Below, one piece after another: positions 3,184-29,727 of a stretch of 64,000 nt of DNA. The translations under genes and the position numbers were made by a program. This DNA comes from Escherichia phage Ptacy1479: sequence record PQ863256.1; one strand, given 5' to 3'. The first letter of the stretch is position 1. The number at the start of each line of letters is the position of its first letter. Below the pieces are notes generated by a model that was not told the DNA's origin, searched no databases, and saw nothing but the letters and a program-made list of their open reading frames with translations.

Positions 3184-5427
3184 ATGGCTAAGCAAAAATA
3201 TAGTGAAGAGGTGTTGGACGAGTTACGTGTTGACCTTCAACGTCGTTTTAATTACGCTCAAGGATACGTGGACATGGCTGTTAAGGGCTATGCTCGTGAA
3301 GCTTGGGAATATTTCTATGGTAACTTACCTGCACCAGTAACTGCTGGCAGCTCTAGTTGGGTAGATCGTACTGTTTGGGAATCTGTTAACGGTACATTGC
3401 AAGATATTATTAACGTATTCTGTTCTGGTGATGAAGCAGTTACTTTCGTAGCTGACAACCAACAGGATTCTGATGCTGCTGATGTAGCAACTAAGTTAGT
3501 TAACCAAATTCTTCTGCGTGATAATCCGGGATACAATATTATCTCTTCTGCTGCACAAGAATGTCTGGTTACTCGTAACTCTTTTATCAAATATTATTGG
3601 GATGAGCAAACTTCTACCCAAACTGAAGAGGCTGAAGGTGTACCACCGGAAGCACTGGCTGCATATGTTCAGGGGTTAGAAGCTGGTGGACTCAAGAATC
3701 TGGAAATCTTCACTGAAGAAAATGAAGACGGTACAGTAGATGTTAGAGTTACTTACGAACAAACTGTTAAACGTGTGAAAGTTGAATATGTTCCTTCAGA
3801 GCAAATCTTTGTTGATGAACATGCTACCTCTTTTGCAGATGCACAATATTTCTGTCATCGTGTACGTCGTTCTAAAGAAGATCTGGTTGCTATGGGCTTC
3901 CCTAAAGACGAGATTGAAGCATTCAACGACTGGACAGACACGATGGATACTACTCAATCTACAGTTGCTTGGTCTCGTACTGACTGGCGTCAGGATATTG
4001 ATGCTGATATTGGTACAGATACCGAAGACATTGCTTCTATGGTTTGGGTTTATGAGCACTACATTCGTACTGGTGTTCTAGATAAGAATAAAGAGTCTAA
4101 ACTCTATCAGGTTATTCAAGCTGGTGAGCATATCCTTCACACTGAAGAAGTAACTCACATTCCGTTTGTAACCTTCTGCCCGTATCCGATTCCGGGTTCC
4201 TTCTATGGTCAATCGGTCTATGACATTACGAAAGATATTCAAGATTTACGTACCGCGTTAGTTCGTGGTTATATTGATAACGTCAACAATGCTAACTATG
4301 GTCGATATAAAGCTCTTGTTGGTGCATACGACCGTCGCTCTCTGCTTGATAACCGTCCCGGTGGAGTGGTTGAAATGGAACGTCAGGACGCTATTGACCT
4401 GTTCCCATACCATAACCTACCTCAAGGTATTGACGGCCTCCTAGGTATGTCTGAGGAGCTTAAAGAGACTCGTACAGGTGTAACTAAACTTGGCATGGGT
4501 ATCAACCCTGATGTGTTTAAGAATGATAACGCTTATGCAACTGTAGGCTTGATGATGAATGCTGCACAGAACCGTCTCCGTATGGTATGTCGTAACATTG
4601 CTCACAACGGTATGGTTGAATTGATGCGTGGTATTTACAATCTTATCAGAGAAAATGGTGAAGTTCCTATCGAGGTACAAACCCCTCGTGGTATGATTCA
4701 GGTAAATCCAAAACAATTACCAGCTCGTCACAATCTTCAAGTTGTTGTAGCTATCTCTCCTAATGAGAAAGCAGAACGTGCACAGAAATTGATTAGCTTG
4801 AAACAGTTGATTGCAGCAGATGCACAGTTAGCACCTCTCTTTGGTTTGGAGCAAGACCGTTACATGACTGCACAGATCTTTGAGTTGATGGGTATTAAAG
4901 ATACTCATAAATACCTTCTGCCTCTGGAACAGTATCAGCCTCCAGAACCTTCTCCGATGGAAATCCTCCAGCTTGAGATGACTAAAGCACAGGTTGAGAA
5001 CGTACAGGCTTCTTCTCAGAAGATGATTGCTGATGCATTCGACCAACGTGAACGTACTACATTCGAACAGCAGAAAGCTGCGGATGAATTAAGTCTGCGT
5101 CAGGAAGAGTTGCAGTTCAAGCAAGAAAATGCAGCAGATGCAATGACTCTGGAAAACCGTAAAGAAGATAACAATGCTACTCTGGAACAAGCTAAGCACA
5201 AGTTAGCTCTTATGCAACAGCAGGTCCGTCAGTATGAATCTGTACTGAAAGAATTGCAGATGGTTATGTCTCATCAAGTAGACCAAGAGAAGATTGTTCA
5301 GCAAACTCGTGTTCAGGATAAAACTTTGGAACTCCAAAAGAAAGAGGCTAATGTAACTAAGAAAGAGCAACAAGCTTCTCTCAAAGATTCACGGATTCCA
5401 GGCAAACGTCTTGGAAGTAAAAACTAA
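3184..5427 (+). CDS. portal protein
   Basis: 747 aa between terminase and scaffold; C-terminal coiled-coil; size and position typical of portal. Confidence 0.8.
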   Translation: MAKQKYSEEVLDELRVDLQRRFNYAQGYVDMAVKGYAREAWEYFYGNLPAPVTAGSSSWVDRTVWESVNGTLQDIINVFCSGDEAVTFVADNQQDSDAADVATKLVNQILLRDNPGYNIISSAAQECLVTRNSFIKYYWDEQTSTQTEEAEGVPPEALAAYVQGLEAGGLKNLEIFTEENEDGTVDVRVTYEQTVKRVKVEYVPSEQIFVDEHATSFADAQYFCHRVRRSKEDLVAMGFPKDEIEAFNDWTDTMDTTQSTVAWSRTDWRQDIDADIGTDTEDIASMVWVYEHYIRTGVLDKNKESKLYQVIQAGEHILHTEEVTHIPFVTFCPYPIPGSFYGQSVYDITKDIQDLRTALVRGYIDNVNNANYGRYKALVGAYDRRSLLDNRPGGVVEMERQDAIDLFPYHNLPQGIDGLLGMSEELKETRTGVTKLGMGINPDVFKNDNAYATVGLMMNAAQNRLRMVCRNIAHNGMVELMRGIYNLIRENGEVPIEVQTPRGMIQVNPKQLPARHNLQVVVAISPNEKAERAQKLISLKQLIAADAQLAPLFGLEQDRYMTAQIFELMGIKDTHKYLLPLEQYQPPEPSPMEILQLEMTKAQVENVQASSQKMIADAFDQRERTTFEQQKAADELSLRQEELQFKQENAADAMTLENRKEDNNATLEQAKHKLALMQQQVRQYESVLKELQMVMSHQVDQEKIVQQTRVQDKTLELQKKEANVTKKEQQASLKDSRIPGKRLGSKN

Positions 5428-5436: not shown

Positions 5437-5673
5437 ATGAACATTAGACATCAATTTAATAAAGAGCACGCCGCCGCTTTGGCGGCTCTCAACCTTAACG
5501 GCAGTCTTGACGCAGCATTAGAGGCATTGAAAGAAAGACTCATGACAGAGATAGTTCAAACAGAACCTCATGAGAATAAGAAACGCGAAGATTGTTATCA
5601 AAAGTATAAAATGGTTGGTAGCTTAAAAGAGGTCATAAAAGCTGCTATCAATAGTGCAGGAGATGTTTCATAA
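5437..5673 (+). CDS. hypothetical small protein
   Basis: TAAGGA 7 nt upstream of ATG; 78 aa. Confidence 0.45.
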   Translation: MNIRHQFNKEHAAALAALNLNGSLDAALEALKERLMTEIVQTEPHENKKREDCYQKYKMVGSLKEVIKAAINSAGDVS

Positions 5674-6758
5674 TGCCACAAGATAATTATATTGACCCGA
5701 ACGATTTTAAATCTTTCCTCCAACTGGATGACCTGAAAGGTTCTTTCAAAGAAGAACTCGGTCGATTAGAATCTGAACAAGAACCAGAAGTGGACATTGA
5801 CGATGAGTTCCCGGAAAAAGACGGTGACGATTTCGACTTTGATACCGACCTTCTCGGTGAAAGCGATGAGCTTAAGTTCGAAGATGAAGATGGTTGGGAA
5901 GGTCGTGAAGAGGAAGGCGAAGTCGAACAAGATGAGGAAGAATTTGATGAATCAGACGAAAGCTCTGAAGCAGATGAGGACGACTCAAGCGATGCAGGAT
6001 ATGAAGATGATTCTGCTGACGGTGAAGGTGAAGTCTTTGATGTAGACTACGAAACCGTTATCACCCTTCCTGATGGACGTGAGATGACTATTGAAGAACT
6101 TTCTAATGGCTATCTTACTGGTGCTGATATGACAGAACGAGAGACTACTCTTCAGCGTCATATGGAAGCATTCGAGGAACGTGTAGTAGGTTTGAAGGAT
6201 GTATTAGAACTAGCGTCTTTAGAAGCAGACCGAGTAATTGAAGATTATAACGGTTTTGATTGGGACAAGCTTGCAGTAGAAGATCCTCAAGCGTATGTTG
6301 AAAACAAACGTTTCTTAGAGAAGTACACAGCTCGCCGTCAACAGCTTGAACAGGCTCAGGTCCGTATTAAGCAGGAAGCAGCAGCTAAAGAGCAGGAAGC
6401 TTTCCAAGCCAAGAGCATTGAATGTGTTAATATTCTGAAACGTGAGATTCCAAATTGGGATGAAAACTTATATCAAAACTTAATGCAATACGCAATTGAC
6501 TTAGGTGCTACTGAAGAAGAAGTATTGAAGGAAAACCGTCCGTCTATTTTCCTAGCTCTCCATAAAGCATACCAATTTGATAAAGGTAAGCAACAGGTGA
6601 TGGCTAAGATTAAACGTCCCGGTGCTCCACGCAAGGTTGTGAAGTCTGATGCTGCAAAGTCTCGTACTTCCAATAAGCCCGACAACGCTAAGGTTGCCAA
6701 GGCATTCGCAGAGGGTCGCGTTAGTCACGAAGACGCATTCAAATTCCTCGTAGATTAA
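5673..6758 (+). CDS. scaffolding protein (putative)
   Basis: very acidic D/E-rich N-terminal half, coiled-coil C-terminus, located between portal and capsid. Confidence 0.65.
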   Translation: MPQDNYIDPNDFKSFLQLDDLKGSFKEELGRLESEQEPEVDIDDEFPEKDGDDFDFDTDLLGESDELKFEDEDGWEGREEEGEVEQDEEEFDESDESSEADEDDSSDAGYEDDSADGEGEVFDVDYETVITLPDGREMTIEELSNGYLTGADMTERETTLQRHMEAFEERVVGLKDVLELASLEADRVIEDYNGFDWDKLAVEDPQAYVENKRFLEKYTARRQQLEQAQVRIKQEAAAKEQEAFQAKSIECVNILKREIPNWDENLYQNLMQYAIDLGATEEEVLKENRPSIFLALHKAYQFDKGKQQVMAKIKRPGAPRKVVKSDAAKSRTSNKPDNAKVAKAFAEGRVSHEDAFKFLVD

Positions 6759-6798
6759 TCGACAAATTAATTATTAATAGTATAGGAGCTAACATAAC

Positions 6799-7860
6799 AT
6801 GGCTAATCCAACTTTATTTGTATCGTATGACCAGAATGGTAAAAAACTTTCTTTTGCTAACTGGATTTCTGTTCTGTCCCCTCAGGATACCCCGTTCGTA
6901 TCTATGACCGGTAAAGAGTCTATCAACCAGACCATCTTTAGCTGGCAGACCGATGCATTGGCAAGCGTTGACGCTAATAACGCACACGTCGAAGGCTCTC
7001 GTGCTGAAGACGGCGAAATGAAACCGACTGTTATCAAATCTAACGTTACTCAGATTCTGCGTAAGGTTGTTCGTGTTTCTGATACTGCTAACACCACCGC
7101 TAACTACGGTCGTGGTCGTGAACTGATGTATCAGCTGGAGAAGAAAGGTAAAGAGATCAAACGTGATCTCGAGAAGATCCTTCTGTCCGGTCAGGCTCGT
7201 ACCGACGTTCTGGCGGACCAGTACCTGACTAACTCTGCAACTGATCCTGATGTTGTTGGTCTGAACGACACCCATGCAGCTCGTAAGACTGGTGCTTTCC
7301 AGTTCCTGTGTGCTCACGGCGGTCTGTCTGGTGGTTTTGTTGACAAGACCAAAAATGGTCCTGCTGACCCAGATACTGGTGCAGTAACTGTTAAAGTTGC
7401 ACAGAATGCTTCTAACCCGACCACTAACATTGGTTTCGACGAAGCTGATATCTTTGATATGACTCTGCAACTGTACACCGCTGGTTCTGAAGCAGATATC
7501 ATCATGATTAACCCGGCTCATGCTAAGATCTTCGCTGGTCTGCAAGAAAATACTCAGGGTTCACGTAAGCGTATCTTTGAGAACACCAAGCAGTTCATCT
7601 ACGAAGTTAACAGCATCACTGACCCGCTGGGCCAGAGCTACAAAATCATCGTTAACCGTTGGATGCCTACCGATGCAGTTTACTTCTTCCGTAGCGCTGA
7701 CTGGACTCAGATGGTTCTGCGTGCTCCGAAACGTACTGAACTGGCTAAAGATGGTTCTTACGAGAAGTGGATGATTGAGATGGAAGTTGGTCTGCGTCAC
7801 CGCAACCCGTATGCTTCCGGCGTTCTGTTCACTGCTGCGGGAAAGGTAGCGGCGGCGTAA
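6799..7860 (+). CDS. major capsid protein
   Basis: 353 aa after scaffold; followed by strong terminator; carries frameshift site at 3' end. Confidence 0.8.
   Translation: MANPTLFVSYDQNGKKLSFANWISVLSPQDTPFVSMTGKESINQTIFSWQTDALASVDANNAHVEGSRAEDGEMKPTVIKSNVTQILRKVVRVSDTANTTANYGRGRELMYQLEKKGKEIKRDLEKILLSGQARTDVLADQYLTNSATDPDVVGLNDTHAARKTGAFQFLCAHGGLSGGFVDKTKNGPADPDTGAVTVKVAQNASNPTTNIGFDEADIFDMTLQLYTAGSEADIIMINPAHAKIFAGLQENTQGSRKRIFENTKQFIYEVNSITDPLGQSYKIIVNRWMPTDAVYFFRSADWTQMVLRAPKRTELAKDGSYEKWMIEMEVGLRHRNPYASGVLFTAAGKVAAA
7839..7845 (+). other. -1 programmed ribosomal frameshift slippery heptamer G GGA AAG
   Basis: X XXY YYZ in capsid frame, 13 nt before capsid stop; -1 frame open from 7779 to 8639. 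Confidence 0.6.
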
Positions 7861-8639
7861 CAGTAGATACCGTAACTGTTAGTCCTTCGTCGGTTGCAAG
7901 CCTTCCGACGGGGGCTACTCAGCAGTTTACAGCTACAGCAGAAATGAGCGACGGCTCCACAAGCACAACTGGATTTAATTGGTCCGTTGAAGGCGGTGGG
8001 GCTGTTTCTGTTTCTGGGCTATACACTGCACCGAGTGCGTCGCAAGAAACCCCAGCAACTATTACGGCTACTAAGGGTGGTAAAACAGGTACTGCTACAG
8101 TTCAGTCTATTTTTGAACCTGCTACTATCGAAGCCAAAGCTAACATTACTGGTAAAGTTGGTGGAAGCACTACAGCCTTTACTACAATGTTCACAGCAAC
8201 TAACTCCTCAGCAGAAGATTATACTTTTGTTGTAGCTCCAACGTCAGCAGGAACTGTTAGCGCAGCAGGAGTTTTAACTTTAAGTAACAGTGCAACAGGT
8301 ACAGTCACTGTTAAGGCTACCCATAAAACTCAGTCAGATGTTGAAGCCACTGTAACCTTTACAGGTGTTGTTGCTAAAGCTACCATCACAGCTAAAACTG
8401 TAGAGGCTAAAGTTGGTGGTGATGTAGTACCTTTTGCTGATATGTTTACGAGTAATAATGCTGCAACTAACTTCAACTATGTAGTAACTCCAACTGCTGC
8501 TGGTACAGTGGATAGCTCTGGTAATCTCACTCTTGCAGATGATCCGGGTGCTGAAACTGTTACAGTTAAGGCAACACATAAAACTCAAACTACAGTTACA
8601 GCTACTTGTTCTATTCCTGCTACTCCTAAAGCAGTATAA
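7845..8639 (+). CDS. Ig-like (BIG2-type) domain extension, predicted to be made only as a -1 frameshift fusion to the major capsid protein
   Basis: -1 frame has no ATG/GTG/TTG before 7944, yet the Ig-like domain begins upstream of that Met (VDTVTVSPSSVASLPTGATQQFTATAE). Confidence 0.6.
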   Translation, partial: GSGGVTVDTVTVSPSSVASLPTGATQQFTATAEMSDGSTSTTGFNWSVEGGGAVSVSGLYTAPSASQETPATITATKGGKTGTATVQSIFEPATIEAKANITGKVGGSTTAFTTMFTATNSSAEDYTFVVAPTSAGTVSAAGVLTLSNSATGTVTVKATHKTQSDVEATVTFTGVVAKATITAKTVEAKVGGDVVPFADMFTSNNAATNFNYVVTPTAAGTVDSSGNLTLADDPGAETVTVKATHKTQTTVTATCSIPATPKAV

Positions 8640-8675
8640 TGTACAGTAACTAGTGAAGAGATTGCATAAGAATAA

Positions 8676-8704
8676 AGCCGCCTTCGGGTGGCTTTTCTTG
8701 TTTT
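8676..8704 (+). terminator. rho-independent terminator after capsid module
   Basis: AGCCGCC-TTCG-GGTGGCT followed by TTTCTTGTTTT. Confidence 0.7.
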
Positions 8705-8726
8705 AAGACCTATACAAGCTAGTGTG

Positions 8727-8735
8727 TAATGTATA
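8727..8735 (+). promoter_or_regulatory. TAATGTATA phage promoter-like element, 33 nt upstream of ATG 8769
   Basis: exact 9-mer recurring upstream of several genes; recalled as the phiEco32-type middle/late promoter motif (unverified). Confidence 0.5.
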
Positions 8736-8768
8736 TTCTTTGTCTACATATAACAAGGAGGACAACCT

Positions 8769-9521
8769 ATGGCAATGCCAGATGTTCAATATCCCATCAA
8801 TACCTATGGGTGGCTAAAGAAGGCCGTGGCCCTCTGGGCGGATAGGGACGATGATGAATTTGTTAATCAAATTCCAAACTTTATTAACTTTGCAGAGAAA
8901 GAGATTTACCGTAACTTACGTATTCCTCCTCTGGAAAAAGAAGTGTATCTCAGCATTAAAGACGGAGTGGCTTTTATTCCTCCGGATTATTTACAAGCTC
9001 AGTGGATGATGAGAGCTAAAGATGGATCGATATTTCAAGTAACCTCTCCAGAAGAGATCAGCTATCGAAAACAACATGGTACAATAAATCCGTCTCACTG
9101 GAACAATCAACCAGTTAACTATGCTCGTTTTGGTTCTCGCTTTTTATTCTATCCGCTGATTAATGCCGACACCCCTGTCTATCCTGATGATGGGAGTCCT
9201 GCCATTCCAGCAGAGAATTCTGTGATTCTGAGTTATTATGCAGATCCTCCAGAGTTTCATGCAGATGAAGATACTAGTGCAATATTAACCATTGCCCCAG
9301 AGCTTCTTCTATATTTTACCCTTAGACATGCATGTCTTTTTGTTCAGGATGATAATGGTGTTCAAAAATGGTCTGCGTTAGGTAAGGCTATTCTTGATGA
9401 AATGGTTGAGCAAGATAAGAAACAAGAGTACTCAGGCTCTCCTATTGCGATACCTAATAATATGACCAGACTTCAGAGTAGCCTACCAGATATTTATGGA
9501 ATACGTACCTCTAGAGTATAA
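8769..9521 (+). CDS. hypothetical virion protein (adaptor/tail candidate)
   Basis: AAGGAGG Shine-Dalgarno; 250 aa between capsid and tail fiber. Confidence 0.5.
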   Translation: MAMPDVQYPINTYGWLKKAVALWADRDDDEFVNQIPNFINFAEKEIYRNLRIPPLEKEVYLSIKDGVAFIPPDYLQAQWMMRAKDGSIFQVTSPEEISYRKQHGTINPSHWNNQPVNYARFGSRFLFYPLINADTPVYPDDGSPAIPAENSVILSYYADPPEFHADEDTSAILTIAPELLLYFTLRHACLFVQDDNGVQKWSALGKAILDEMVEQDKKQEYSGSPIAIPNNMTRLQSSLPDIYGIRTSRV

Positions 9522-19581: not shown

Positions 19582-20364
19582 ATGGCAATTAGAATGGGTA
19601 TAGAAGAACTAGACCCGATGGTTCAACAGGCTTCAAAGAAGTATGGTATACCAGCTGCTTTGATTCATGCTGTAATTCAAAGGGAGTCTAGTGGTCGTCC
19701 TAAGGTGGCTTCCGGAACTGGTCCTGTTGGTTTGATGCAGATCAGTAAAGGATTAGCCAAAGATTATGGTTACAAGCTAGAAGATAGGCTTGACCCAGCC
19801 AAGAATATCGATATGGGTGTTCGTTACATCAGAGATAACCTGAAAGCTTTTAATGGTGATGTTAGGAAGGCAATGGTTGGCTACTCAGAGGGAACTGGTG
19901 GTGCTAAGCAGATGTTCGCTGGTAAGAAAGGATTTACCCCTCAGGCTCTTGACTCAATGAACAACAAACACTTTCTTCCTTTCTATGGTGATGCAGCTTC
20001 TCAGATTGCTAACCCTATTGGGGCTTTACAAGCTGTTCAACCAGTTAATCAGTTTAATCCTGACTTGTTAGACAGAGAGAAGGCTGCACAAGCTCCAACT
20101 CAGGCAGAGATTGCTGCTTCTAAGACAGGTGCTTTAGGAGGTAATCCTGTAGAGTTCTACTCTGATGAAGTGCAGGAAGGAGAAGATCAGAAGCCTCGAC
20201 AGAACTTTGGTAATGCAGTATTAGGGGTAGCTGCTATGCTTGCTGGTAAACCTCCTACTTCTCAAACAGTTCAGAGGGCAAGTGCACCACATGCAGCAGG
20301 TTCTCAGTACAGTCCACAAACACAAGCAGTGCTCAGACGTTTGGCTAGCATTGGTGTAAAGTAA
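19582..20364 (+). CDS. virion-associated lytic transglycosylase (SLT domain)
   Basis: RESSGRP...GLMQI SLT motif. Confidence 0.75.
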   Translation: MAIRMGIEELDPMVQQASKKYGIPAALIHAVIQRESSGRPKVASGTGPVGLMQISKGLAKDYGYKLEDRLDPAKNIDMGVRYIRDNLKAFNGDVRKAMVGYSEGTGGAKQMFAGKKGFTPQALDSMNNKHFLPFYGDAASQIANPIGALQAVQPVNQFNPDLLDREKAAQAPTQAEIAASKTGALGGNPVEFYSDEVQEGEDQKPRQNFGNAVLGVAAMLAGKPPTSQTVQRASAPHAAGSQYSPQTQAVLRRLASIGVK

Positions 20365-20383
20365 TAATCTTTAAGGAGGACTT

Positions 20384-21436
20384 ATGTCTTTATTTGGAAA
20401 ATCAGCTTCTAGCAAAACCACAGTGGCTCCTTCCTCTCAGGTTGATGCCCTGCTGAAGCAGATTGTTGCTAATGCTCAGAATATGCAGAACAACGATCCG
20501 GGATTCATTTCCCAACAGCTGGCTGGGTTTAATGGCAACCAACAGGGTGCTCTGAATAATTTGGCAGCTTCTACAACTCAGAAGCAACTAGCTGATATGT
20601 ACACGCCTCGTACTCAGCAAGGGTTGGACCAACTAAACTCTCTTGCCCAACAGTATCAGGATATCATAAACGGTGGCGGTATAACTGCTGATGGTGTTAA
20701 TAACTTTAATAAAGGGTTGAATAATTCAGCTCTTGCTCAAGCCACTAGTAAAGCAGCTTCCAACGTATCTCTCGGGAATGGCTCTGATTCAGGTTCTCTT
20801 CGTAGAGCTGCTGCTCAGGGTGCTGCTTTGAATGGTGCTAATACAAACCTAGCTCGAACTATCAATGGAAAGAATATGGGAATTAATGCCCTTCAACAAG
20901 ACCAAAACTTCCAGAGAGGGTTACTTGGTGCTCAGTCGGGGTTAGCTGGACAGAATCTTAATCTTGGTGCACAAGGTGTTCAGGAAACCCAACAAGCTAT
21001 CCAGAATCAACTCTTGGCTGGTAATTTACAACAGCGACAAGATCAAGCTCAAGCTGACATTAATTGGCAGAATGCTATTGGCTCTAGGCAGTATGGATGG
21101 AATCAGCTTAACAACCAGCTTAATGTATTAAACAGTGTAAGTCCAATGGCTGGATATACAATTAAGAATGCCGCTCCGGGTGTTAACACAGGACAGCAGA
21201 TTCTTGGTGCTGGTATTACTGGATTAGGTATTGCAGGTCGTATGGGCGCTTTCTCTCCTAACCAGCAGACTCAAAATGCTTGGAGTTCCTATAACAACTC
21301 AGGTGGGCAATCTGGAATGGCTGGTCCTATGATTGGAGGTTCTAATCTCTCTCAACAGAGAGGTCAGTCTAACTGGTTATCCACAGCAGGTAGTAATATC
21401 TTAGGTGGTGTCTTAGGGGCATTCGGAGCAAACTAA
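20384..21436 (+). CDS. Gln/Asn/Gly-rich internal virion protein, paralog 1
   Basis: 350 aa; N-terminus MSLFGKSASSKTT and NNLAAS motif shared with next gene. Confidence 0.55.
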   Translation: MSLFGKSASSKTTVAPSSQVDALLKQIVANAQNMQNNDPGFISQQLAGFNGNQQGALNNLAASTTQKQLADMYTPRTQQGLDQLNSLAQQYQDIINGGGITADGVNNFNKGLNNSALAQATSKAASNVSLGNGSDSGSLRRAAAQGAALNGANTNLARTINGKNMGINALQQDQNFQRGLLGAQSGLAGQNLNLGAQGVQETQQAIQNQLLAGNLQQRQDQAQADINWQNAIGSRQYGWNQLNNQLNVLNSVSPMAGYTIKNAAPGVNTGQQILGAGITGLGIAGRMGAFSPNQQTQNAWSSYNNSGGQSGMAGPMIGGSNLSQQRGQSNWLSTAGSNILGGVLGAFGAN

Positions 21437-21448
21437 AGGAGATTTGAT

Positions 21449-22417
21449 ATGGGACTTTTCGGAGGCGGGGGTAGTAAAACTACTTCCCAAATGATTCGCC
21501 CTGAATACATTCAACAGTATATTGACCAGCTTAACAAGCAGATTGGTAATACCAGTTCAGGGGATTATGTTTATCGAGATAATGTAGGGTTTAATAACAA
21601 CCAGACAGAGGCACTTAACAACTTAGCACAATCTGGTGCTCTAGGAACTCTCTCACAGCAGTACATGGATGCAGCAGGTCAAGGGTTAGGGTATCTAGAT
21701 AATGCTTATAAAGGCTATCAGAGCCTCTCTGGACAAGGTGGGATTACTGGAGAACAGATTGGTGCTCTCGCTGGTCAACTGTATGATGATGACGCTGTGC
21801 AAGCAGCTATAACAGCTAATAACGAGCAGGTTCAACAGAACTTGGCACGTAATGCTCTTCCTCAGTTAGCTCAACAGTTTGCTGGTCAACAAGGATCAGG
21901 TGCTCGTATGGCTAAGTCTTTTGCCCAAGGTGATGCTCTGAATCAGATGCAAGGGCAAGCAACAGATATTACCAACAGTGCCTATAACTCGGCTATTAGC
22001 CAAGCTGAAAGCATCCTCTCTGGTAATAGACAGAATCAGGCAGCTGCTCTCTCAGGTCTTTCTAATATTGGTTCTAACCTTTCTAACCTAGGTCAGCAGG
22101 GTGCTAATTTGTCTCAACAGCAAATGATGAATCAATGGAATGCAGGGTTGCAGCAACAACAGCAACAACAGAATGAATATGATAATGCCTACCAGAATGC
22201 TCAGAACGCAGCTAATTGGGGATGGCAGGATATCAACAACCAACTCGGTGCAGCAGGCGTACTTAACGGTGCTCTCGGACAAACCACAACTACTAAAACA
22301 TCTGGTGGCAAAGGTGGTTTCCTTGGTGGAGCTATGAGTGGTGCAGCAGCTGGCTCTTCCTTTGGGCCTTGGGGCGCATTAGCTGGGGGTGTAATCGGTG
22401 GGTTGGCTAGTACTTAA
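21449..22417 (+). CDS. Gln/Asn/Gly-rich internal virion protein, paralog 2
   Basis: 322 aa; N-terminus MGLFGGGGSKTT; Gly-rich hydrophobic C-terminus. Confidence 0.55.
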   Translation: MGLFGGGGSKTTSQMIRPEYIQQYIDQLNKQIGNTSSGDYVYRDNVGFNNNQTEALNNLAQSGALGTLSQQYMDAAGQGLGYLDNAYKGYQSLSGQGGITGEQIGALAGQLYDDDAVQAAITANNEQVQQNLARNALPQLAQQFAGQQGSGARMAKSFAQGDALNQMQGQATDITNSAYNSAISQAESILSGNRQNQAAALSGLSNIGSNLSNLGQQGANLSQQQMMNQWNAGLQQQQQQQNEYDNAYQNAQNAANWGWQDINNQLGAAGVLNGALGQTTTTKTSGGKGGFLGGAMSGAAAGSSFGPWGALAGGVIGGLAST

Positions 22418-22430
22418 TTAGGAGATAAAT

Positions 22431-24086
22431 ATGCAACAGACAACTTACGCTCAGGTCAGAAGTCGTGACCCGAGAAATACTTTCTATGGTGTTAATCCGG
22501 GAGCGGCTTCGGCCTCTCCTTATATGGCTAGACCAACTCAGACAGCAGATATTTCTATGTACCAACGTCCTGCTGTACCTTCATCTCTTGCGGGTCTTGT
22601 CTCTCAGGCAGAAGAAGATCAGAATGCTATGATTAATCCTGGATTCCAGCAACGTCTTATGGAACAGCAGAATCAAGGAACCCCTACCAGTCTTCAGGGT
22701 ATTGACATTGGAGCACCAGCCCCTGTAGTGGCTAATCCTAACCTATCCACTGATCAAGGTTTACAAGATGCAGGGCTTATGCCTAGTGACCCTCTTCCGG
22801 TAACACCTCCCCCTAAACCACTAGAAGCTGGTCCTATGGAGTTTACTCCCTCTCAGGTGGAACAGGCACAAGGTGTGATTAACACTCTTGCTCAAGGACA
22901 AGACACTGGTGATGGGATGGCTGCTGCTACTCGTGCTAAAGATCAAGAACGTGTTAACAATGATATCTTACAGGTTGCGAAAGCTAAAGACCCCTCAGAA
23001 GCTTGGAACAAACTACAGAAAGAACCATTCTACCAAAACTCTAGTTTCTATACAGGTTTGATGGGTGTAGGTCTTTCAATCATGTCAGGTAAGTCTCCTA
23101 TCGAAGCTTTCCAGATTGGTCAGGGAATGGCTAATCAGGATGAGACTAAGAAACAACTAGAAGCTAACCGTGATGCTCTGATAGAACAAGGTTTCTCTCA
23201 AGACTCAATTGCAGCTGCTATTGCTAATGGAGACCCGTCCCTGCTGAAGATGAAGGCTGTAGACCCTGCTCAGAAAGAAGCGTTGTATGCTGCTCGTGAA
23301 GAACGACAGAATGCTGAATGGGATAGACGTCAGCAGATTCAAGAACAGACTATGCGTGAGCGTGCTGATGAAACTCGTCGTGCCGCTGAAGAAAGAGCCA
23401 ACATGAACTTCGAACGTCAGAAAGAACTTATTGGTTATCGTGATCAAGTTAAGGCTGAACGTGCTGAACAAGCTGCTCAGAGTTTTAACTTTAACCCGAA
23501 AGAAGTTCGTCTTGCTCAGAACACAGCTGAAGGTACAGTTGCTAAGCAGTGGGCAGAGAAAGGTGGTCTGTTTAACCAGTCCAACAAAGACTTGGATTTG
23601 GCTGACAAGGCTGTTAAGGATAAAGATTACCAGACAGCTCGTTCTGCTTACATGCAGGCTATCATGAACTCCGCAAGGGCTGAAATCGGTGCTACTCGTT
23701 CTCTTACCGAAGAAGACTTGGGGCACTTTGCAGAAGACCCATCAATCTTTGTTCGTGTTGGCAACAAGTTTGCACTGAAATCTGGGTGGCGTCCTACTGA
23801 TTCAGCTCTTGCTTATGCTCGCAAGCAAGCTAACGTTGGTCACACCTCTGCAATGAAAGGCGTTGCTGATGCTAAGAGAGCTACTATCGAAGCGTACATT
23901 GGTTCAGGTATGGATAAGAAGAGAGCTACTGCATTGGTTAACCGTGCAATTCCTTCTGGCGGTTTCTATGACCCTCTCGGTGTTTTCTCTGATGAAGCAG
24001 AAGAGTATGTTGGTGGTGCAGCAACCAACCCTAAACTGAACGGTGCTTTATCGGCTGTTGAAGACACTAGCTGGTTCACGCAATAA
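22431..24086 (+). CDS. hypothetical internal virion protein
   Basis: 551 aa within structural block. Confidence 0.5.
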   Translation: MQQTTYAQVRSRDPRNTFYGVNPGAASASPYMARPTQTADISMYQRPAVPSSLAGLVSQAEEDQNAMINPGFQQRLMEQQNQGTPTSLQGIDIGAPAPVVANPNLSTDQGLQDAGLMPSDPLPVTPPPKPLEAGPMEFTPSQVEQAQGVINTLAQGQDTGDGMAAATRAKDQERVNNDILQVAKAKDPSEAWNKLQKEPFYQNSSFYTGLMGVGLSIMSGKSPIEAFQIGQGMANQDETKKQLEANRDALIEQGFSQDSIAAAIANGDPSLLKMKAVDPAQKEALYAAREERQNAEWDRRQQIQEQTMRERADETRRAAEERANMNFERQKELIGYRDQVKAERAEQAAQSFNFNPKEVRLAQNTAEGTVAKQWAEKGGLFNQSNKDLDLADKAVKDKDYQTARSAYMQAIMNSARAEIGATRSLTEEDLGHFAEDPSIFVRVGNKFALKSGWRPTDSALAYARKQANVGHTSAMKGVADAKRATIEAYIGSGMDKKRATALVNRAIPSGGFYDPLGVFSDEAEEYVGGAATNPKLNGALSAVEDTSWFTQ

Positions 24087-24106
24087 GACCTAAGTCCTGC
24101 CTTCTA

Positions 24107-24115
24107 TAATGTATA
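24107..24115 (+). promoter_or_regulatory. TAATGTATA promoter-like element, 38 nt upstream of ATG 24154
   Basis: exact 9-mer; the track ORF start at 24109 is the ATG inside this motif. Confidence 0.5.
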
Positions 24116-24153
24116 TAGGGGGTAGGACATTTTTATTTATAAAAGGAGACGTT

Positions 24154-27100
24154 ATGGCTAACATTAAACCGTGGGAAGAAGCTTCCAAAGCTCCTGCGTA
24201 TCTGAATGCCTCTCCGGAGCAACAAGCTCAAATGAGAGAACAATATAAGGCAGCAGGTGGCTCTATTCCTGAGGAACAACCAGTAGCACAACCACAACAA
24301 GAAGAACGTGGTGCTATAGGTGAGTTTGCTCAAGGTGTGTCAAATGCTCTTCAATCTGGTGGTGCAAATATTGCAGCTAGTGCTGCTAAAGGTATTGGTG
24401 GTTTAGTTGAGATTGGTGAGAATCTAGCTGGAACACAAACTAGTTATGGTAAGCGTATCCAAGAGAACTCTCAGAACCTTCTGAAAGAGCGTATGGATAA
24501 GATTGAGGATGGGGTTGGTAAAACTGTTGGTCAGTATGCTGGCGTTGCTGGTGATATTGGTATGACTGTTGCTAACCCATTGGCTGCTGCTGCTATCATC
24601 GCAGGTCGTGAGACAGGCCGTGCATACGCAGACCAAACCCCTGAAGAGGGAGAAGATAAGTCTATTCTAGATGCGGCCTTAGTGGGTGGTGCTAACTATG
24701 CGGCTCAGAGAATCCTTCCGGGTGCTGTTGGTACGGCTGAGTCCACACTTGGACGTATTGGTCAGAACGTTGCTAGTAACGCAGTGGCTGGTGCTAAAGG
24801 TGGCGCTCTTGTCGGTGCTGCTGAAGTTCAGAACAAGTATGGCGATGATAATGATCTAGCTAAGACATTGGAAGGTGTTATCGAAGAAGGTGCTATGGGT
24901 GCTGCATTCGGTGGTGCAGTTGGTGGGGTTCATGGTTTGATTAGCCGTCCGGATTCTGCTGTCTTCAAGAATACTCCAGAGTATGCGAAGACTGATATTG
25001 CTGCTGATGATGAACTAATTCGCAGTGCTAAGAATATTGATGAATTGAAAGAAGCCTATTCTAAAGCTGAAACTGCTAACGCTGCTTCTGCTCTGAATCT
25101 TCTGGATGAGAATGGATTCCGTATTACAGATGCTGTTGCTGTAGATTCTCCTGCTGCTCAGCGTATTCTTAATACTGACCAAGCTCGTGCTGAGAAGGCT
25201 GCTTCCGTTCAGAAAGAACATTCCAACATTCCGGGCCTTAATCCTTTAGCTTCTCCTGCTAAGACTCGTGGTAAAGCCTTCGCTGATAACGAGCACAACC
25301 AGAAGCAGGCTGTTGCTATGAAGGATGCAATGGCTGATTACACCAAAGACAACACTAAAGCTCTTACGGATGTTCTAGATAACCTAGACCGTGAATTAAC
25401 ATCTCTCCGAGCTTCTGGTGATTTTACTGGTAGTCCGATTGATATTAAGAATCGTACACAAGCCGACCGTGACTTCATTGATGCTTACAAGACTTTCTAC
25501 AACGAAGCAAACAGATTCAAAGCTCGTGAAGGTGAAGACTTTAACAACTTTGTAGAGAAAGCTGCTGAACTACAGAAGATGGCTGATAATGTCTCTCCAG
25601 AGATGAAGAAAGCTATCAGTGGGTTGAAGAAACTGAAAGGTATGCCTGAAGGTTTTAATCCTATCCAAGATGCTTACACTCTGAACAATACAGCTAAGTT
25701 CATGAGCAACCAAGATCGTGGTTGGACTTCCCTGACTGATGATGGATTCCGTGAGGCTTCTTCACCTAGTCTGGTAATGAATACTCTTGGTGCTGCTAAG
25801 TATGCTCTGAATCGCTTCTCTTCTCAGCGTGCTCGCTCTCAACGTGTTAAGCAACAAGAGTCTAACAGTGAAGCTATCCGCTCTCTTGCTCGTGGTGATT
25901 TGGAAGTTGCTCGTGCTAAATCTACTGCCGAGGAAGCTCGTGCTAGGATGGAAGAAGAACCAGTTGTTGATGACATTAAATTTAAGACGCAAAATGACGT
26001 AGAAACCGAACCGGTTCGGGAGCCTTCTTCTAGTACTGTGACGGAAGAAAATCTTCCTTCTTCTGCTCCTCAAGAAACTCCTCTTACAGCTCGTGATTTA
26101 GTTGCTCAAAGACGTGCTATCCGTCAGGCTGAACAGCGTCGCGCTGAAGAAGAGGCAGCTGCTGCTCAAGAAGCTCCGGTCGAACAAGCTCCACAGGCTG
26201 AACCTCTCCCTGCTCGTAACCCTCTAGAGGAGCGTCGTGCAATGGAACAGCAACGTGCTCAAGAAGAGGCCGCACAGGCTCCAGAACCAGCCGTAGAGGA
26301 ACCAACAGTCAAAGCTGAGCCATTACCTGCTCGTGCTCCTAAAGCTCCTAAGGAAGCTGTACAGGACGTTAAACCGGCAAGTGGTGTAGAACGTTTAGCT
26401 GCTATGTCTAGTGCTGCTCGTCAGGCTACCAAAGATCGTGCAGAACGTTTTGCCCGTTCTCTGTACTCTAAGGCTGCTAAGGCTAAAGCTACTGCTGAAA
26501 ACTTCTTGGCTTATAAGGGTGATCCTAAGGAATTGATGCGTCGTATTCGTCAGGAAGACAATGCTATCAATACTGAACGTCATGAAGAAATGGCTCGTAA
26601 CCAGCTGGCTTCTCAGCAAGGTATTGCTACTGCTAAGAACAACACTGTACGAACTAATTTTGCTGAATGGGTTAAAGAACGTGGTCTGCCAGAAGACATT
26701 GCTACTAAGGCATTACGTGCTGAAGAGAAAGGTTTAGGTGGGAACGTAACTAACTTGGATAGTCTGAAACGCCGTGCTGAAAGGTTGTATCAGAAGCAGC
26801 GTGAGGATGAATTTGATAGACTGTACCAACAGGCTCTAGAAGAGAACAAAGCTTTCGATAACAAGAATGCTCCTAAACTGATTGACCAGAAGAAAGAGCT
26901 TCAGTCCGAGATTGACGCTTTGATTGATTCAGAACCTTTACGTCCTGCTCAGAAAGATGCTATGCGTAAGCTGATGAATGATTTTGTAGATGGGAAGTTT
27001 AAATCTTCAGAGAAGGCTGGTAGGGAAGAGGCTTTGGAAGTTGGTCAGATGAAGGATATTTGGGATGGGTTTATTAATACCTACAACAGAGAAGTGAATG

Positions 27101-28575
27101 CCTTCAACAAAGCTAACAAGAACTCTCAGTACGAAGCTGCTGCTAAGCACTTACAGGCTCGTGAAGAACGTCTTGCTACCCTCAGGAAAAAGGCTCAGGC
27201 TCGTTCAGATGCTAAGGCTGCTGTTGAGAATGAACGTAAAACTCTAGAGGCTATTGCAGCTCAGAAGAGTGAGATTGAGAAGATGATGGAAGGTTTACCT
27301 AAACCTGTTCGTGAGGCTCAGGAATCTCGTACATTGAAACAGTTGGCTGCTCACCACGATAAGAATTCTCCAGTTCCTCCAGAGAAATTCCGTAGTTATA
27401 TTGAACGTATCCACAACGCCGAGTCAGATTACCTTGATCGTCAGCGTCGTTTAACTGATGCAGAGGAAGATGCTCGTCAGGCTAAGTGGAATAAGATGTA
27501 TGAGCAAGCGGAAGAGATGAACCGTAAGTTTGATGTGGACAAGAGAGTTAAGCGCAGTGAAGAGCTTAAAGCGGCCCAAGAGCGTGAGAATGACCTTATG
27601 GCAGTACAACGTCAACGTGATGACATTCATCGCCGCCTGATGCGTACTATGGAAGATAAGGGCATATCTAGAGAGGATGCTGAAGCATTTGCTGGTTCCT
27701 ATATGGACAACCGTTATGCACTTCTTGAGAAGCCTATGACTCCTACTGAACATCAGAATGCTCGCTCTCGTATCGAAGCTGATGTTGAGAAGTTTGCTAA
27801 GAAGTACGAATCAATGACTCCTATCGAGAAAGAGATTGTTAAGGTTACTGGAGATACTGAAGGTAAGCTTGATAACTTGGATGCGGATACTAGGAAGGCT
27901 ATTGAGGAGGCTCAGAAGGTTGACTCTGATATTAAGAAACTGCAAGAGGAAGAGATGGAGATGGAGAAGATTCGTTCTGCTCTGCCTGACGATGAAAGAT
28001 CTCAAGCAAATTCTGATATCTTGGAAAGCATTAAACAACAGGAAGAGGTCTTTGCTGATAAAGTAGAGAAAGCTTTCTTGAGTGGGAAAAGCTTGGATGA
28101 ATTGGTTAGTGTGGCTGAAGTTTTAGACAGGGTTCATGGTGCAGATAAGGCTGGTAACAACCGTCGCTTTGTACGTGCATTGCAGACTGCTGCTGAAAAC
28201 AAGAAGAAGTATGGTGATAATCCGGTAGCTTGGTTTAGTGCTGATGATTACTCTGCCATTGCTAAACTTGGTGCTTCTTCCGCAGGTGGTAACAAATCCA
28301 GAGCACTGGAGAAGATCTTTGGTTCTACAGCTGAACAGGCTAAGAGTAAGTTGCTTGGTAGGGATGATGTAGCGAAGATGAGACGTGTGATTGAAGAGAA
28401 CCCTGATATTAAGATTCCTTCTTACAAGACAACGAATCGTACTGAGTACTTGCAGTTCTTGGAGAAGTTTAATGACGAAGGGAAGCCGAAGATTAAACGT
28501 GGCTCATTGTCAGAGAAGCTTGAACGCAGTAAGCGTCAATCGAGACTCCGTGTAAGAGTTCGACCTAAGGAGTGA
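24154..28575 (+). CDS. large internal virion / ejection-type protein (1473 aa; start revised from 24109)
   Basis: AAGGAG upstream of ATG 24154; long coiled-coil and Ala/Glu/Arg/Gln-rich low-complexity regions. Confidence 0.6.
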   Translation: MANIKPWEEASKAPAYLNASPEQQAQMREQYKAAGGSIPEEQPVAQPQQEERGAIGEFAQGVSNALQSGGANIAASAAKGIGGLVEIGENLAGTQTSYGKRIQENSQNLLKERMDKIEDGVGKTVGQYAGVAGDIGMTVANPLAAAAIIAGRETGRAYADQTPEEGEDKSILDAALVGGANYAAQRILPGAVGTAESTLGRIGQNVASNAVAGAKGGALVGAAEVQNKYGDDNDLAKTLEGVIEEGAMGAAFGGAVGGVHGLISRPDSAVFKNTPEYAKTDIAADDELIRSAKNIDELKEAYSKAETANAASALNLLDENGFRITDAVAVDSPAAQRILNTDQARAEKAASVQKEHSNIPGLNPLASPAKTRGKAFADNEHNQKQAVAMKDAMADYTKDNTKALTDVLDNLDRELTSLRASGDFTGSPIDIKNRTQADRDFIDAYKTFYNEANRFKAREGEDFNNFVEKAAELQKMADNVSPEMKKAISGLKKLKGMPEGFNPIQDAYTLNNTAKFMSNQDRGWTSLTDDGFREASSPSLVMNTLGAAKYALNRFSSQRARSQRVKQQESNSEAIRSLARGDLEVARAKSTAEEARARMEEEPVVDDIKFKTQNDVETEPVREPSSSTVTEENLPSSAPQETPLTARDLVAQRRAIRQAEQRRAEEEAAAAQEAPVEQAPQAEPLPARNPLEERRAMEQQRAQEEAAQAPEPAVEEPTVKAEPLPARAPKAPKEAVQDVKPASGVERLAAMSSAARQATKDRAERFARSLYSKAAKAKATAENFLAYKGDPKELMRRIRQEDNAINTERHEEMARNQLASQQGIATAKNNTVRTNFAEWVKERGLPEDIATKALRAEEKGLGGNVTNLDSLKRRAERLYQKQREDEFDRLYQQALEENKAFDNKNAPKLIDQKKELQSEIDALIDSEPLRPAQKDAMRKLMNDFVDGKFKSSEKAGREEALEVGQMKDIWDGFINTYNREVNAFNKANKNSQYEAAAKHLQAREERLATLRKKAQARSDAKAAVENERKTLEAIAAQKSEIEKMMEGLPKPVREAQESRTLKQLAAHHDKNSPVPPEKFRSYIERIHNAESDYLDRQRRLTDAEEDARQAKWNKMYEQAEEMNRKFDVDKRVKRSEELKAAQERENDLMAVQRQRDDIHRRLMRTMEDKGISREDAEAFAGSYMDNRYALLEKPMTPTEHQNARSRIEADVEKFAKKYESMTPIEKEIVKVTGDTEGKLDNLDADTRKAIEEAQKVDSDIKKLQEEEMEMEKIRSALPDDERSQANSDILESIKQQEEVFADKVEKAFLSGKSLDELVSVAEVLDRVHGADKAGNNRRFVRALQTAAENKKKYGDNPVAWFSADDYSAIAKLGASSAGGNKSRALEKIFGSTAEQAKSKLLGRDDVAKMRRVIEENPDIKIPSYKTTNRTEYLQFLEKFNDEGKPKIKRGSLSEKLERSKRQSRLRVRVRPKE

Positions 28576-28576
28576 T

Positions 28577-28624
28577 AAAAGAAAAGCCCTCAAGGAGAAA
28601 TCCAAGAGGGCTTTATTTGTTTCT
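28577..28624. terminator. bidirectional terminator at convergence of + and - modules
   Basis: AGCCCTC...GAGGGCT stem flanked by A-run on one side and T-run on the other. Confidence 0.55.
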
Positions 28625-28769
28625 AAGTTTTAAAAACCATCAAATTCGTCATACATCCCAATTCTCTTCAGAGGTCTGGATGTTCATCTTCAAAGCACCC
28701 TGAGATGCCTCCGTAGAACCAATCTGATTTACTTCCAAGAATAACAACCTCTTCATTCATATAACCCCC

Positions 28770-28931
28770 TTAGATTGTGTTTATAAAATTAATAAGCTTC
28801 TCTTCACTTTCATCAAAAGCTTTTCCAGCTGCTTCCATCTCCCAAGTATCGGCATTGTCAATAAAGCTCTGAGCTTCTAATAGATCGTGGATTAAGTCGA
28901 AGAGTTTATTTTTATCTGATTGTGTGATCAT
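28770..28931 (-). CDS. small hypothetical protein (53 aa, not in track)
   Basis: AGGAA Shine-Dalgarno 6 nt upstream of ATG, 8 nt after upstream stop. Confidence 0.3.
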   Translation of the reverse strand: MITQSDKNKLFDLIHDLLEAQSFIDNADTWEMEAAGKAFDESEEKLINFINTI

Positions 28932-28939
28932 GTCAGTTC

Positions 28940-29167
28940 CTAGATTAAATCGTAATACTGAATAATGTCAGAGAGTTTGAACTCTCGAACCTCATCTTTC
29001 TCTACATCTATCGCTGTCATAATCCAACAAGGTTTGCCACCATTATGAAAACGGGAGCTAGCAACGGAGGTTCGGAGTGGAATAACGGACCGGTCAGCAA
29101 CCTCGCCTCTCCAATTGCGATAGCGAAAGCGAAGCACTTGTTGCGTAGATTTTTGATCATCACTCAT
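28940..29167 (-). CDS. hypothetical protein (start revised to Met36 of track ORF)
   Basis: AAGGAA upstream; overlaps stop of HNH gene. Confidence 0.4.
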   Translation of the reverse strand: MSDDQKSTQQVLRFRYRNWRGEVADRSVIPLRTSVASSRFHNGGKPCWIMTAIDVEKDEVREFKLSDIIQYYDLI

Positions 29168-29561: not shown

Positions 29562-29727
29562 AATCAGCTTCTTCCCAAACTCGTTTGTTTACACGATGGC
29601 TCACTTTGCCCTCACGAGGAATACGACCAGTTCGCTGATCAAACAGTTGATGTTTAATCTTTTGGTCTTTACGAGATTCACGATTGGAGGAGTTTTCATC
29701 ATATGAACGATAATCAAATTTACCCAT
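29548..29727 (-). CDS. small basic hypothetical protein (59 aa, not in track)
   Basis: AAGGAT 8 nt upstream of ATG; fills gap between flanking genes; stop overlaps next start. Confidence 0.4.
   Translation of the reverse strand: MGKFDYRSYDENSSNRESRKDQKIKHQLFDQRTGRIPREGKVSHRVNKRVWEEADYGEV

Follow-up and report, generated by a model that had tools for sequence, protein, structure and literature searches.

Escherichia phage Ptacy1479 was analysed over a window of 64,000 nucleotides (record PQ863256.1), the term denoting this whole stretch of DNA. The phage is a phiEco32-like E. coli podophage with a prolate head (Kuravirus, Gordonclarkvirinae), and positions 20000-40000 of the window are about 96% identical to Kuravirus records. 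The ORF order is the same as in phages Paul, SGF2 and phiEco32, namely scaffold, capsid, Ig extension, terminator and adaptor. The capsid ORF is matched by the Pfam family SU10_MCP (5.6e-77), by the SU10 major head protein in the PDB (7z45, E=5e-233) and by the PHROG family phrog_1328, major head protein, and it ends at a TAA stop codon at 7858-7860. The elements of the locus are the following:

6784..6788, plus strand: Shine-Dalgarno sequence AGGAG preceding ATG 6799 of the major capsid gene (anti-SD duplex, -6.5 kcal/mol)
6799..7860, plus strand: major capsid protein gene, 0-frame, HK97-fold SU10_MCP family (353 aa, 38.9 kDa)
7833..7857, plus strand: small hairpin with most of the heptamer in its loop (7833-7840 pairs with 7850-7857)
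7839..7845, plus strand: slippery heptamer G_GGA_AAG, -1 shift site according to register, conservation, the Paul record and the literature
7845..8639, plus strand: -1 frame extension, 264 codons and stop (long isoform, 6799-7845 joined to 7845-8639)
7845..8108, plus strand: GSGG linker and Ig-like domain 1 (Big_2, 28.7 bits), spanning the internal ATG 7944
7872..7930, plus strand: conserved, extended stem-loop starting 26 nt past the heptamer, within the sequence that codes for domain 1
8109..8369, plus strand: Ig-like domain 2 (Big_2, 23.4 bits, barely over the cutoff)
8370..8636, plus strand: domain 3, paralogue of domain 2 (51% identity, E=6e-20)
8674..8704, plus strand: terminator-like hairpin with a T run (intrinsic type), closing the capsid transcription unit after the extension

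The AGGAG at 6784..6788 would serve the short and the long capsid isoforms alike. In the records of Paul, WFI101126 and SU10, terminators are annotated at the place equivalent to 8674..8704.

Reading frames at the capsid 3' end

The capsid gene ends in ...gct gcg gga aag gta gcg gcg gcg taa, in which position 7839 is the third base of a codon, which gives the heptamer the register G_GGA_AAG. Twelve bases intervene between the last base of the heptamer and the capsid stop, which starts 13 nt after it. The open stretch of the -1 frame extends from 7779 to 8639, with the ATG at 7944 as its first ATG, GTG or TTG; past the heptamer the frame runs for 105 nt without any start codon, and GSGGVTVDTVTVSPSSVASLPTGATQQFTATAE is encoded upstream of ATG 7944. 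On all of these points (the placement of GGGAAAG in the capsid frame as G GGA AAG, the distance to the stop and the open, startless -1 frame), sequence, register and frame reading bear out what the first-pass annotation had claimed. The junction motif that it gave, GGKG, has to be corrected to AGKG, since the fusion would read ...FTAAGK before the shift and GSGGVTVD after it; a junction-spanning peptide would carry FTAAGKGSGGVTVD or span VLFTAAGKGSGGVTVD.

The abundance of the heptamer in the window is not unusual, with four copies of GGGAAAG against 7.07 expected from shuffles, and the count is uninformative as a test of chance. It was replaced by a test of in-frame context, covering the 23 heptamers of the X_XXY_YYZ type that lie in frame in mechanical ORFs of at least 100 aa in the window. 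Only one of them, GGGAAAG at 7839-7845, enters a long -1 frame, of 266 codons, that continues 779 nt beyond the stop. The runner-up, AAATTTC at 42557 with 108 codons in the -1 frame, was rejected, as it falls in a spurious plus-strand ORF opposite minus-strand genes.

Conservation points to the same site. The heptamer, its register and the relationship between the frames are invariant across 14 of 14 relatives, which span Kuravirus, Nieuwekanaalvirus, Suseptimavirus and Privateervirus, and the columns TGCTGCGGGAAAG of their alignment are invariant. Among the E. coli and Shigella relatives, capsid proteins share 93-99.7% identity; in Proteus phage Privateer and Cronobacter phage 009 the capsid protein is 57% identical and the extensions are unrelated, and the heptamer is kept. 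Wherever a relative has an intact extension, its -1 frame is open all the way back to the heptamer. The site shows three of the features expected of an X_XXY_YYZ -1 frameshift, namely the zero-frame register, an open -1 frame without an initiation signal of its own, and conservation.

Programmed -1 frameshifting at GGGAAAG, yielding a capsid-Ig fusion of 613 aa, is in all probability the best explanation of the locus. Most ribosomes translating 6799-7860 would stop at the TAA and give the 353-aa capsid protein, whereas a minority would slip back by one base on the heptamer, the tRNA-Gly in the P site and the tRNA-Lys in the A site pairing anew with GGG_AAA, and would then read GGT AGC GGC GGC and onward in the -1 frame to the TAA at 8637-8639. 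The long subunit would end in a GSGG linker and three Ig-like domains. Its computed size (613 aa and 64.5 kDa, with 264 residues past the shift) agrees with the fusion of about 613 aa and 65 kDa, with a 264-aa extension, that had been proposed at the outset, and the fusion itself is supported by the register, by the absence of a separate start for the tail, by the domains encoded and by the conservation. The same junction model, when applied to phage Paul, gives its annotated 894 aa. Judged from the DNA, the fusion is well supported, every computationally testable point agreeing with it.

The Ig-like tail and its internal start codon

The extension matches the PHROG family phrog_13745, 'Ig domain containing protein' (1.1e-72), and its domains were assigned with the bacterial Ig-like domain group 2 (Big_2, PF02368), for which the Pfam gathering cutoff is 22.8 bits. 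Within an 88-aa segment taken from 7845 onward, the match of domain 1 covers profile positions 2-77 of 79; it starts 18 nt past the heptamer and runs through the Met of ATG 7944, as claimed beforehand for a BIG2-type domain, with E=1e-8 for a query that takes in the -1 codons upstream of the Met. If the translation begins at ATG 7944, the sole Big_2 match is the second domain (E=1.1e-3). Domain 1 spans ATG 7944 and therefore cannot be made whole from that start.

The description of the tail as an Ig-like array holds for three domains, two of which reach the Big_2 cutoff; the third, taken alone, gives no significant match to Pfam Big_2 (9.3 bits), yet it is half identical to the second. BLASTP finds no significant similarity between domains 1 and 2, which rules out three copies of one repeat, and the array therefore combines one Big_2 domain with another type of Big_2-like unit, more divergent and present twice. 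Searches of PDB sequences with the tail return only weak or partial Ig-like matches, namely the Ig-like region of a teneurin-like protein for domain 1 (1e-7) and, weakly, residues 378-459 of the phage T5 tail tube protein pb6 for domain 2 (E=0.016). A single-sequence AlphaFold2 model of the 266-aa tail is almost all beta-strand but unreliable (mean pLDDT 48, pTM 0.26).

These data bear on the possibility that the Ig-like ORF stands as a gene of its own, with translation starting at ATG 7944 and giving a free decoration protein, or another protein, of 231 aa and 22.9 kDa with the N-terminus MSDGSTS. Most depositors of related phages do annotate a stand-alone 'Ig domain containing protein', the PHROG family profile begins at the Met, and in the SU10 structure paper gp10 is considered a possible minor capsid protein in its own right (PMC9509320). 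However, ATG 7944 has no Shine-Dalgarno sequence (anti-SD duplex of -0.5 kcal/mol, versus -6.1 to -11.4 kcal/mol in six neighbouring genes), the codon is not conserved, being Lys in phiEco32-type phages, and the annotated starts vary from record to record (ATG at +105, GTG at +30 or farther downstream). The product would also miss roughly the first third of the Big_2 domain, and in all relatives with an intact extension the frame is unbroken back to the heptamer. A separate gene is thus very improbable.

Among relatives, the extensions differ not only in sequence and length but even in the type of Ig domain. The fusion of 613 aa in the window compares with 526-532 aa in the phiEco32 type, 700 aa in SGF2, 725 aa in EP335, 812 aa in KarlSchell and 894 aa in Paul, a range of 526 to 894 aa for the relatives which, if about 87 aa is assumed per unit, corresponds to tails of about two to six Ig-like units among the close ones. 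The linker reads GKGSGGVTVD in the window phage and GKGGGVTVD in phiEco32. The window tail is the SGF2 tail minus its third 87-aa repeat, its domains being 87-98% identical in protein sequence to those of SGF2, and domain 3 being 90% identical to the last SGF2 domain. Compared with the phage collection, the extension has no full-length match, the best record being EP335 (86% identity over 82% of the extension). The capsid gene of the window is WFI101126-like and is joined to a three-domain tail of the SGF2/EP335 type; in sequence comparison, this combination is the only feature specific to the window.

RNA structure around the heptamer

Two RNA structures accompany the shift site. In the small hairpin at 7833..7857, 94% of the alignment cells are paired, with zero compensatory changes. 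Once the ribosome occupies the heptamer, this hairpin must melt. The extended stem-loop at 7872..7930 lies in a 100-nt fold of -34.1 kcal/mol (z=-2.1), and its consensus fold includes three pairs with compensatory changes, helices 2 and 3 being paired in 96-99% of the cells, in an alignment whose covariation rests on about two clades. A scan of IMG/VR for the junction motif returned only five loci and added no diversity to the covariation analysis. With compensatory changes from about two clades and a spacer of 26 nt instead of the usual 5-9 nt, the stem-loop was not accepted as an established stimulator; as a candidate modulator of frameshifting it is possible but unproven. At GGGAAAG 7839-7845, neither a stimulatory structure at the usual 5-9 nt spacing nor an upstream SD-like element was seen. 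Such elements are common but are not required for the GGGAAAG heptamer in E. coli. A hairpin enclosing the same heptamer has been noted in SU10 (PMC4281155).

A broader reading, which we consider doubtful, combines two propositions: that the tail is a swappable module of variable copy number at the frameshift junction, and that the stem-loop at 7872-7930 is an unusually distant modulator setting the fraction of long subunits. If both were true, the number and the length of the surface adhesin domains would be tuned independently of the capsid lattice.

Known systems and protein data from relatives

The capsid frameshift at GGGAAAG is not new, but an already published feature of the phiEco32-like group. 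The long isoforms of this group (phiEco32 gp11-gp12, SU10 gp9+10, Paul CPT_Paul_010 and the YF01 gp8 long form) share the capsid family and the gene order, an identical heptamer at the same codon position and a G-rich linker followed by Big_2, and only the tail differs. In the window, likewise, the gene order around an SU10_MCP capsid, the codon position of GGGAAAG, the Gly-rich linker and Big_2 are all found. The GenBank record of Paul joins both frames with the comment 'Frameshift at GGGAAAG', citing phiEco32 (PMID 18294652), and the YF01 paper describes the frameshift site for the whole group (PMC9965538), as do the papers on SU10 (PMC4281155) and Privateer (PMC7881722) for their own phages. 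Privateer (Privateervirus, Grimontviridae) is alike in carrying GGGAAAG at the 3' end of an SU10_MCP-family gene with an Ig-like -1 product, and unlike in the more distant capsid mentioned above and in a stop that directly abuts the heptamer; its tail of 171 aa consists of I-set and Big_2 domains unrelated in sequence to the window tail. A minor capsid form has been detected in Privateer virions by mass spectrometry (PMC7881722). For phiEco32, a short and a long product are on record, as cited in the Paul entry and in PMC7881722.

In SU10, proteomics reported head protein forms of 38.5 and 55.4 kDa and a product named as a fusion of genes 9 and 10 (PMC4281155). This argues against termination-reinitiation, or translational coupling, after the TAA at 7858-7860, by which terminating ribosomes, brought close by a capsid stop that lies inside the -1 ORF, would produce a separate Ig-like protein. 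The nearest start in the -1 frame lacks a Shine-Dalgarno sequence and lies 84 nt past the stop, in Privateer the first one lies 186 nt farther than the stop abutting the heptamer, and the invariance of the heptamer would be unexplained; such a route is likewise very improbable.

Cryo-EM (2022) and SDS-PAGE of SU10, however, found no long isoform and no density for an Ig protein (PMC9509320; PMC9965538), in conflict with the earlier proteomics of 2014, which makes part of the published protein evidence weak. The absence of the long isoform from these data is accounted for by a 1-nt insertion near 8,415-8,425 of the deposited SU10 sequence, which shuts the -1 frame after 11 codons, and it means that the extension is dispensable. 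It is hardly credible that the window site is likewise a decaying remnant with negligible slippage and a functionless extension, as apparently in SU10, which is viable with a uniform capsid despite its broken frame, since the 264-codon frame is intact in the window, the tail domains stay close to those of SGF2, and intact extensions are kept by 13 of the 14 phages examined despite big changes in length.

Two classical systems had been invoked for comparison, and both are apt. Lambda G/GT has the same G_GGA_AAG, a -1 shift shortly before the upstream ORF ends and a minor longer product; unlike the window locus, it encodes a tail chaperone, and its product is not a virion component and carries no Ig-like domains. 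T7/T3 10A/10B follows the same logic, with a -1 frameshift late in the major capsid gene and a longer minor subunit that co-assembles into heads. T7 10A/10B uses another slippery sequence and adds a short extension only. As cited in PMC9965538, slippage at lambda G/GT is about 3.5% and the figure for T7/T3 about 10%. A different route to a similar pair of proteins is found in Salmonella phage SE131 (Moazamivirus), with a plain SU10_MCP capsid of 312 aa and a Big_2-extended capsid of 586 aa, where, unlike in the window, the long form is a second, paralogous gene with the extension in frame; in the long-form gene, to which the scan was limited, there is no heptamer within the last 150 nt.

Fraser et al. 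2006 (J Mol Biol 359:496, as cited in PMC9965538) described Big_2 and I-set domains on the C-termini of phage capsid and tail proteins, often added by programmed frameshift, and a weak adhesion role has been proposed for them. The window locus is real but ordinary, a further instance of this pattern with nothing in it new or different in kind. That the longer capsid form would be present in virions is taken from the literature on relatives rather than from the window phage. Long subunits would co-assemble with short ones and display their Ig-like domains on the head surface, where the domains probably act as weak adhesins for cell-surface or mucus carbohydrates; for the window phage, we infer the slip efficiency, the surface exposure and the adhesive role. 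Kuraviruses are under investigation as therapeutic agents against pathogenic E. coli, and Ig-like domains so placed on the prolate head could influence how such phages adsorb, bind mucus or provoke an immune response. In most deposited genomes of the phage group, the extension is still listed in truncated form, as a stand-alone 'Ig domain containing protein' whose start codon is chosen inconsistently, and the PHROG family built from those calls starts at an internal Met; the right gene model is a two-frame join, as in Paul and Privateer.

Frameshift site and predicted fusion product

When the regions 6700-8760 and 20000-40000 were compared with GenBank phages by megablast, about 100 phiEco32-like podophages of E. 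coli and Shigella were matched, which belong to Kuravirus and its sister genera within the Gordonclarkvirinae. The best records are 94-96.5% identical over 20000-40000, and for 6700-8760 no phage record reaches 99%. The gene order around the capsid gene, which is the same in Paul, SGF2 and phiEco32, comprises:

Features around the capsid gene, in order
3184-5427, portal
between portal and scaffold, a small ORF
5673-6758, scaffold
6799-7860, major capsid protein (ORF of 353 aa)
between major capsid protein and adaptor, an ORF in the -1 frame, then a terminator
8769-9521, adaptor
next after the adaptor, tail fibre

The capsid ORF matches Pfam SU10_MCP (5.6e-77) and the structure of the SU10 major head protein (7z45, 5e-233). 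Its 3' end is ...gct gcg gga aag gta gcg gcg gcg taa, and since the capsid codons read ...gct gcg gga aag, the heptamer GGGAAAG (7839-7845) lies in the register G_GGA_AAG, with the stop (7858-7860) four codons past it. In E. coli, heptamers of the form X_XXA_AAG are intrinsically prone to shifting, and GGGAAAG is also the heptamer of the lambda G/GT site. The open -1 frame spans 7779-8639, with ATG 7944 as its earliest candidate start. A shift at the heptamer gives ...FTAAGK-GSGGVTVDTVTVSPSS..., a product of 613 aa and 64.5 kDa with 264 post-shift residues. In all this the first-pass annotation was exact, both in what it read from the sequence (position and register of the heptamer, the open -1 frame, no start before ATG 7944) and, by the computed junction, in proposing a ~613-aa fusion with a 264-aa extension; its one slip was the junction motif, given as GGKG, which is actually AGKG. 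The junction model is validated by Paul, for which the identical construction yields 894 aa, the length of the annotated joined CDS and also the published one (PMC9965538).

The heptamer by itself is not beyond chance (4 copies in the window against 7.07 expected), but its context is. Among all mechanical ORFs of at least 100 aa in the window, it is the only one of 23 in-frame X_XXY_YYZ heptamers to open a long -1 frame, here of 266 codons and ending 779 nt beyond the capsid stop. The second-ranked in-frame heptamer was set aside, as it lies inside a spurious ORF facing minus-strand genes.

Regarding the RNA, the heptamer sits within a small hairpin (7833-7840 paired with 7850-7857), which is the one noted (CTGCTGCGGGAAAGGCGGCGG) by Mirzaei et al. 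(2014) in describing the SU10 site (PMC4281155); the hairpin cannot coexist with a ribosome positioned on the heptamer. A fold of -34.1 kcal/mol (z=-2.1) is computed for the 100 nt past the heptamer, and a consensus stem-loop at 7872-7930 is paired in 96-99% of cells over 12 relatives, with compensatory changes in three pairs. Its role is unproven, because these relatives represent roughly two clades, the protein coding is itself conserved and the spacer to the heptamer is 26 nt instead of the usual 5-9 nt.

Domains and initiation of the extension

Divided into three segments of ~88 aa, the extension scores above the Big_2 cutoff (22.8 bits) in segments 1 (28.7 bits) and 2 (23.4 bits) and below it in segment 3 (9.3 bits). 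Segment 3 is 51% identical to segment 2 (E=6e-20), and BLASTP detects no similarity between segments 1 and 2. PHROGs labels the extension an 'Ig domain containing protein' (phrog_13745, 1.1e-72). A single-sequence AlphaFold2 model is nearly all beta-strand, at an unreliable pLDDT of 48. The Big_2 match of segment 1 covers profile positions 2-77 of 79 and begins 18 nt past the heptamer, so ATG 7944 sits about one third into the domain, which bears out the earlier claim that an Ig-like domain spans this internal Met.

Separate initiation of the Ig-like ORF is unlikely. The 21 nt upstream of ATG 7944 pair with the anti-Shine-Dalgarno at -0.5 kcal/mol, a weaker pairing than at the window's median ATG (-2.5) or at any of six flanking structural genes (-6.1 to -11.4), and the position is AAA (Lys) in the phiEco32, WFI101126, SU10, KBNP1711 and UKE3 types. 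Most GenBank/RefSeq records give homologues of 7944-8639 as a separate 'Ig domain containing protein', whose start varies between records (ATG +105, GTG +30, or further downstream). The phrog_13745 profile starts exactly at the internal Met, so this family was built from truncated gene calls; together with the inconsistent starts, this means that the truncated gene model has reached family databases.

On the best explanation, programmed -1 frameshifting would give a minority of capsid subunits three Ig-like domains behind a flexible GSGG linker, presumably on the outer head surface. Slip rates cited for analogous sites are ~3.5% in lambda and ~10% in T7 (PMC9965538). By analogy with the general proposal for phage Ig-like domains of Fraser et al. 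(2006), as cited there, the tail may have a weak adhesive role.

Conservation and previous descriptions

GGGAAAG is found at the capsid gene 3' end, in identical register, in 14/14 phages: the window, Paul, SGF2, phiEco32, WFI101126, SU10, XT73, EP335, KarlSchell, KBNP1711, 101114UKE3, JacquesWildberger, Privateer and Cronobacter phage 009. The capsids of Privateer and 009 are 57% identical to that of the window, yet keep the heptamer, whereas their tail (I-set plus Big_2) is unrelated. Fusion lengths are 526-532, 613 (window), 700, 725, 812 and 894 aa. In JacquesWildberger_Bas92 (L017:4038-4062) the four 0-frame codons past the heptamer are changed (GGGAAAG TTGGATCCGCAACAG) and the usual TAA is gone, the capsid stop lying 3 nt further downstream, with heptamer and -1 frame preserved; the heptamer and the -1 reading seem to be what is under selection, not the C-terminal capsid residues.

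The site is documented for Paul, SU10, Privateer and YF01, and the finding is therefore a correct rediscovery: the observation is confirmed, its interpretation supported, and both already known apart from a minor variant in domain number. The joined CDS of Paul is annotated 'Frameshift at GGGAAAG; Frameshift in PhiEco32 major capsid protein product as well (PMID: 18294652)'. By mass spectrometry of Privateer virions, Corban and Ramsey (2021) detected the minor capsid form, stating that it had been seen in phiEco32 and SU10 (PMC7881722), and the YF01 paper describes short and long isoforms for the entire Kuravirus-like group, comparing them with lambda and T3/T7 (PMC9965538).

The -1 frame of SU10 ends after 11 codons owing to a 1-nt insertion, as previously recorded (PMC9965538). 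The extra base follows the heptamer region (L005:3391-3540, KM044272; GACACTGTCTACTG against GACAGTGT-GACTG in relatives) and moves the Ig ORF into the capsid 0 frame, past the stop. The broken frame fits the absence of Ig protein density in SU10 cryo-EM (PMC9509320), and SU10 shows that a head can be made without the tail. The insertion is at odds with the proteomics of Mirzaei et al. (2014), which list head protein forms of 38.5 and 55.4 kDa, the latter the fusion (PMC4281155), which leaves room for either a sequencing error or phage stocks that differ.

Tail type and other long capsid forms

The nearest capsid protein is that of WFI101126 (99.7% identical), whose tail is shorter, of phiEco32 type, with a GGG linker instead of GSGG. 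From the first bases past the heptamer, linker and tail belong to the SGF2/EP335/Paul type, so the tail type switches right at the frameshift junction. Compared domain by domain, the tail is that of SGF2 minus its third repeat: domains 1 and 2 are 98% and 87% identical to their SGF2 counterparts, and domain 3 is 90% identical to the fourth and last. The two tails (7846-8639 against SGF2) thus differ in length by exactly one repeat unit of 87 aa. None of the phage records covers the whole tail; EP335 comes nearest, at 86% identity over 82% of it. These comparisons suggest that the tail is swapped or resized as a module, with repeats gained or lost at the frameshift junction.

Longer capsid forms may also arise by other routes. 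Salmonella phage SE131 has tandem SU10_MCP capsid genes (L009:1985-2923 and L009:3001-4761), of which the second (586 aa) is extended in frame at its C-terminus by sequence with a Big_2 domain, and its last 150 nt contain no slippery heptamer; judging from these genes, the short-plus-long pair is reached through gene duplication. Escherichia phage ECO319P1 has two capsid paralogues (L010:2992-3930 and L010:4011-5096). Aeromonas phage APT65 (L012:1069-5263) has three successive genes labelled 'major head protein', followed by a 428-aa ORF labelled hypothetical (SU10_MCP, 5.9e-76); these may be four tandem paralogues, the last with a ~120-aa extension, the Pfam scan covering the fourth. In Aeromonas phage LAh_6, a short 'putative tail protein' ORF (L011:3900-4190) occupies the capsid gene's -1 frame, appears I-set Ig-like by eye, and its domain-like sequence (PPVVTTQPATPVSVAVGAT...) begins upstream of the annotated GTG. 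The 3' end of this capsid gene, ...GTA AAG CCC TAA, lacks the canonical heptamer, and a shift at A_AAG adjoining the stop may yield a fusion.
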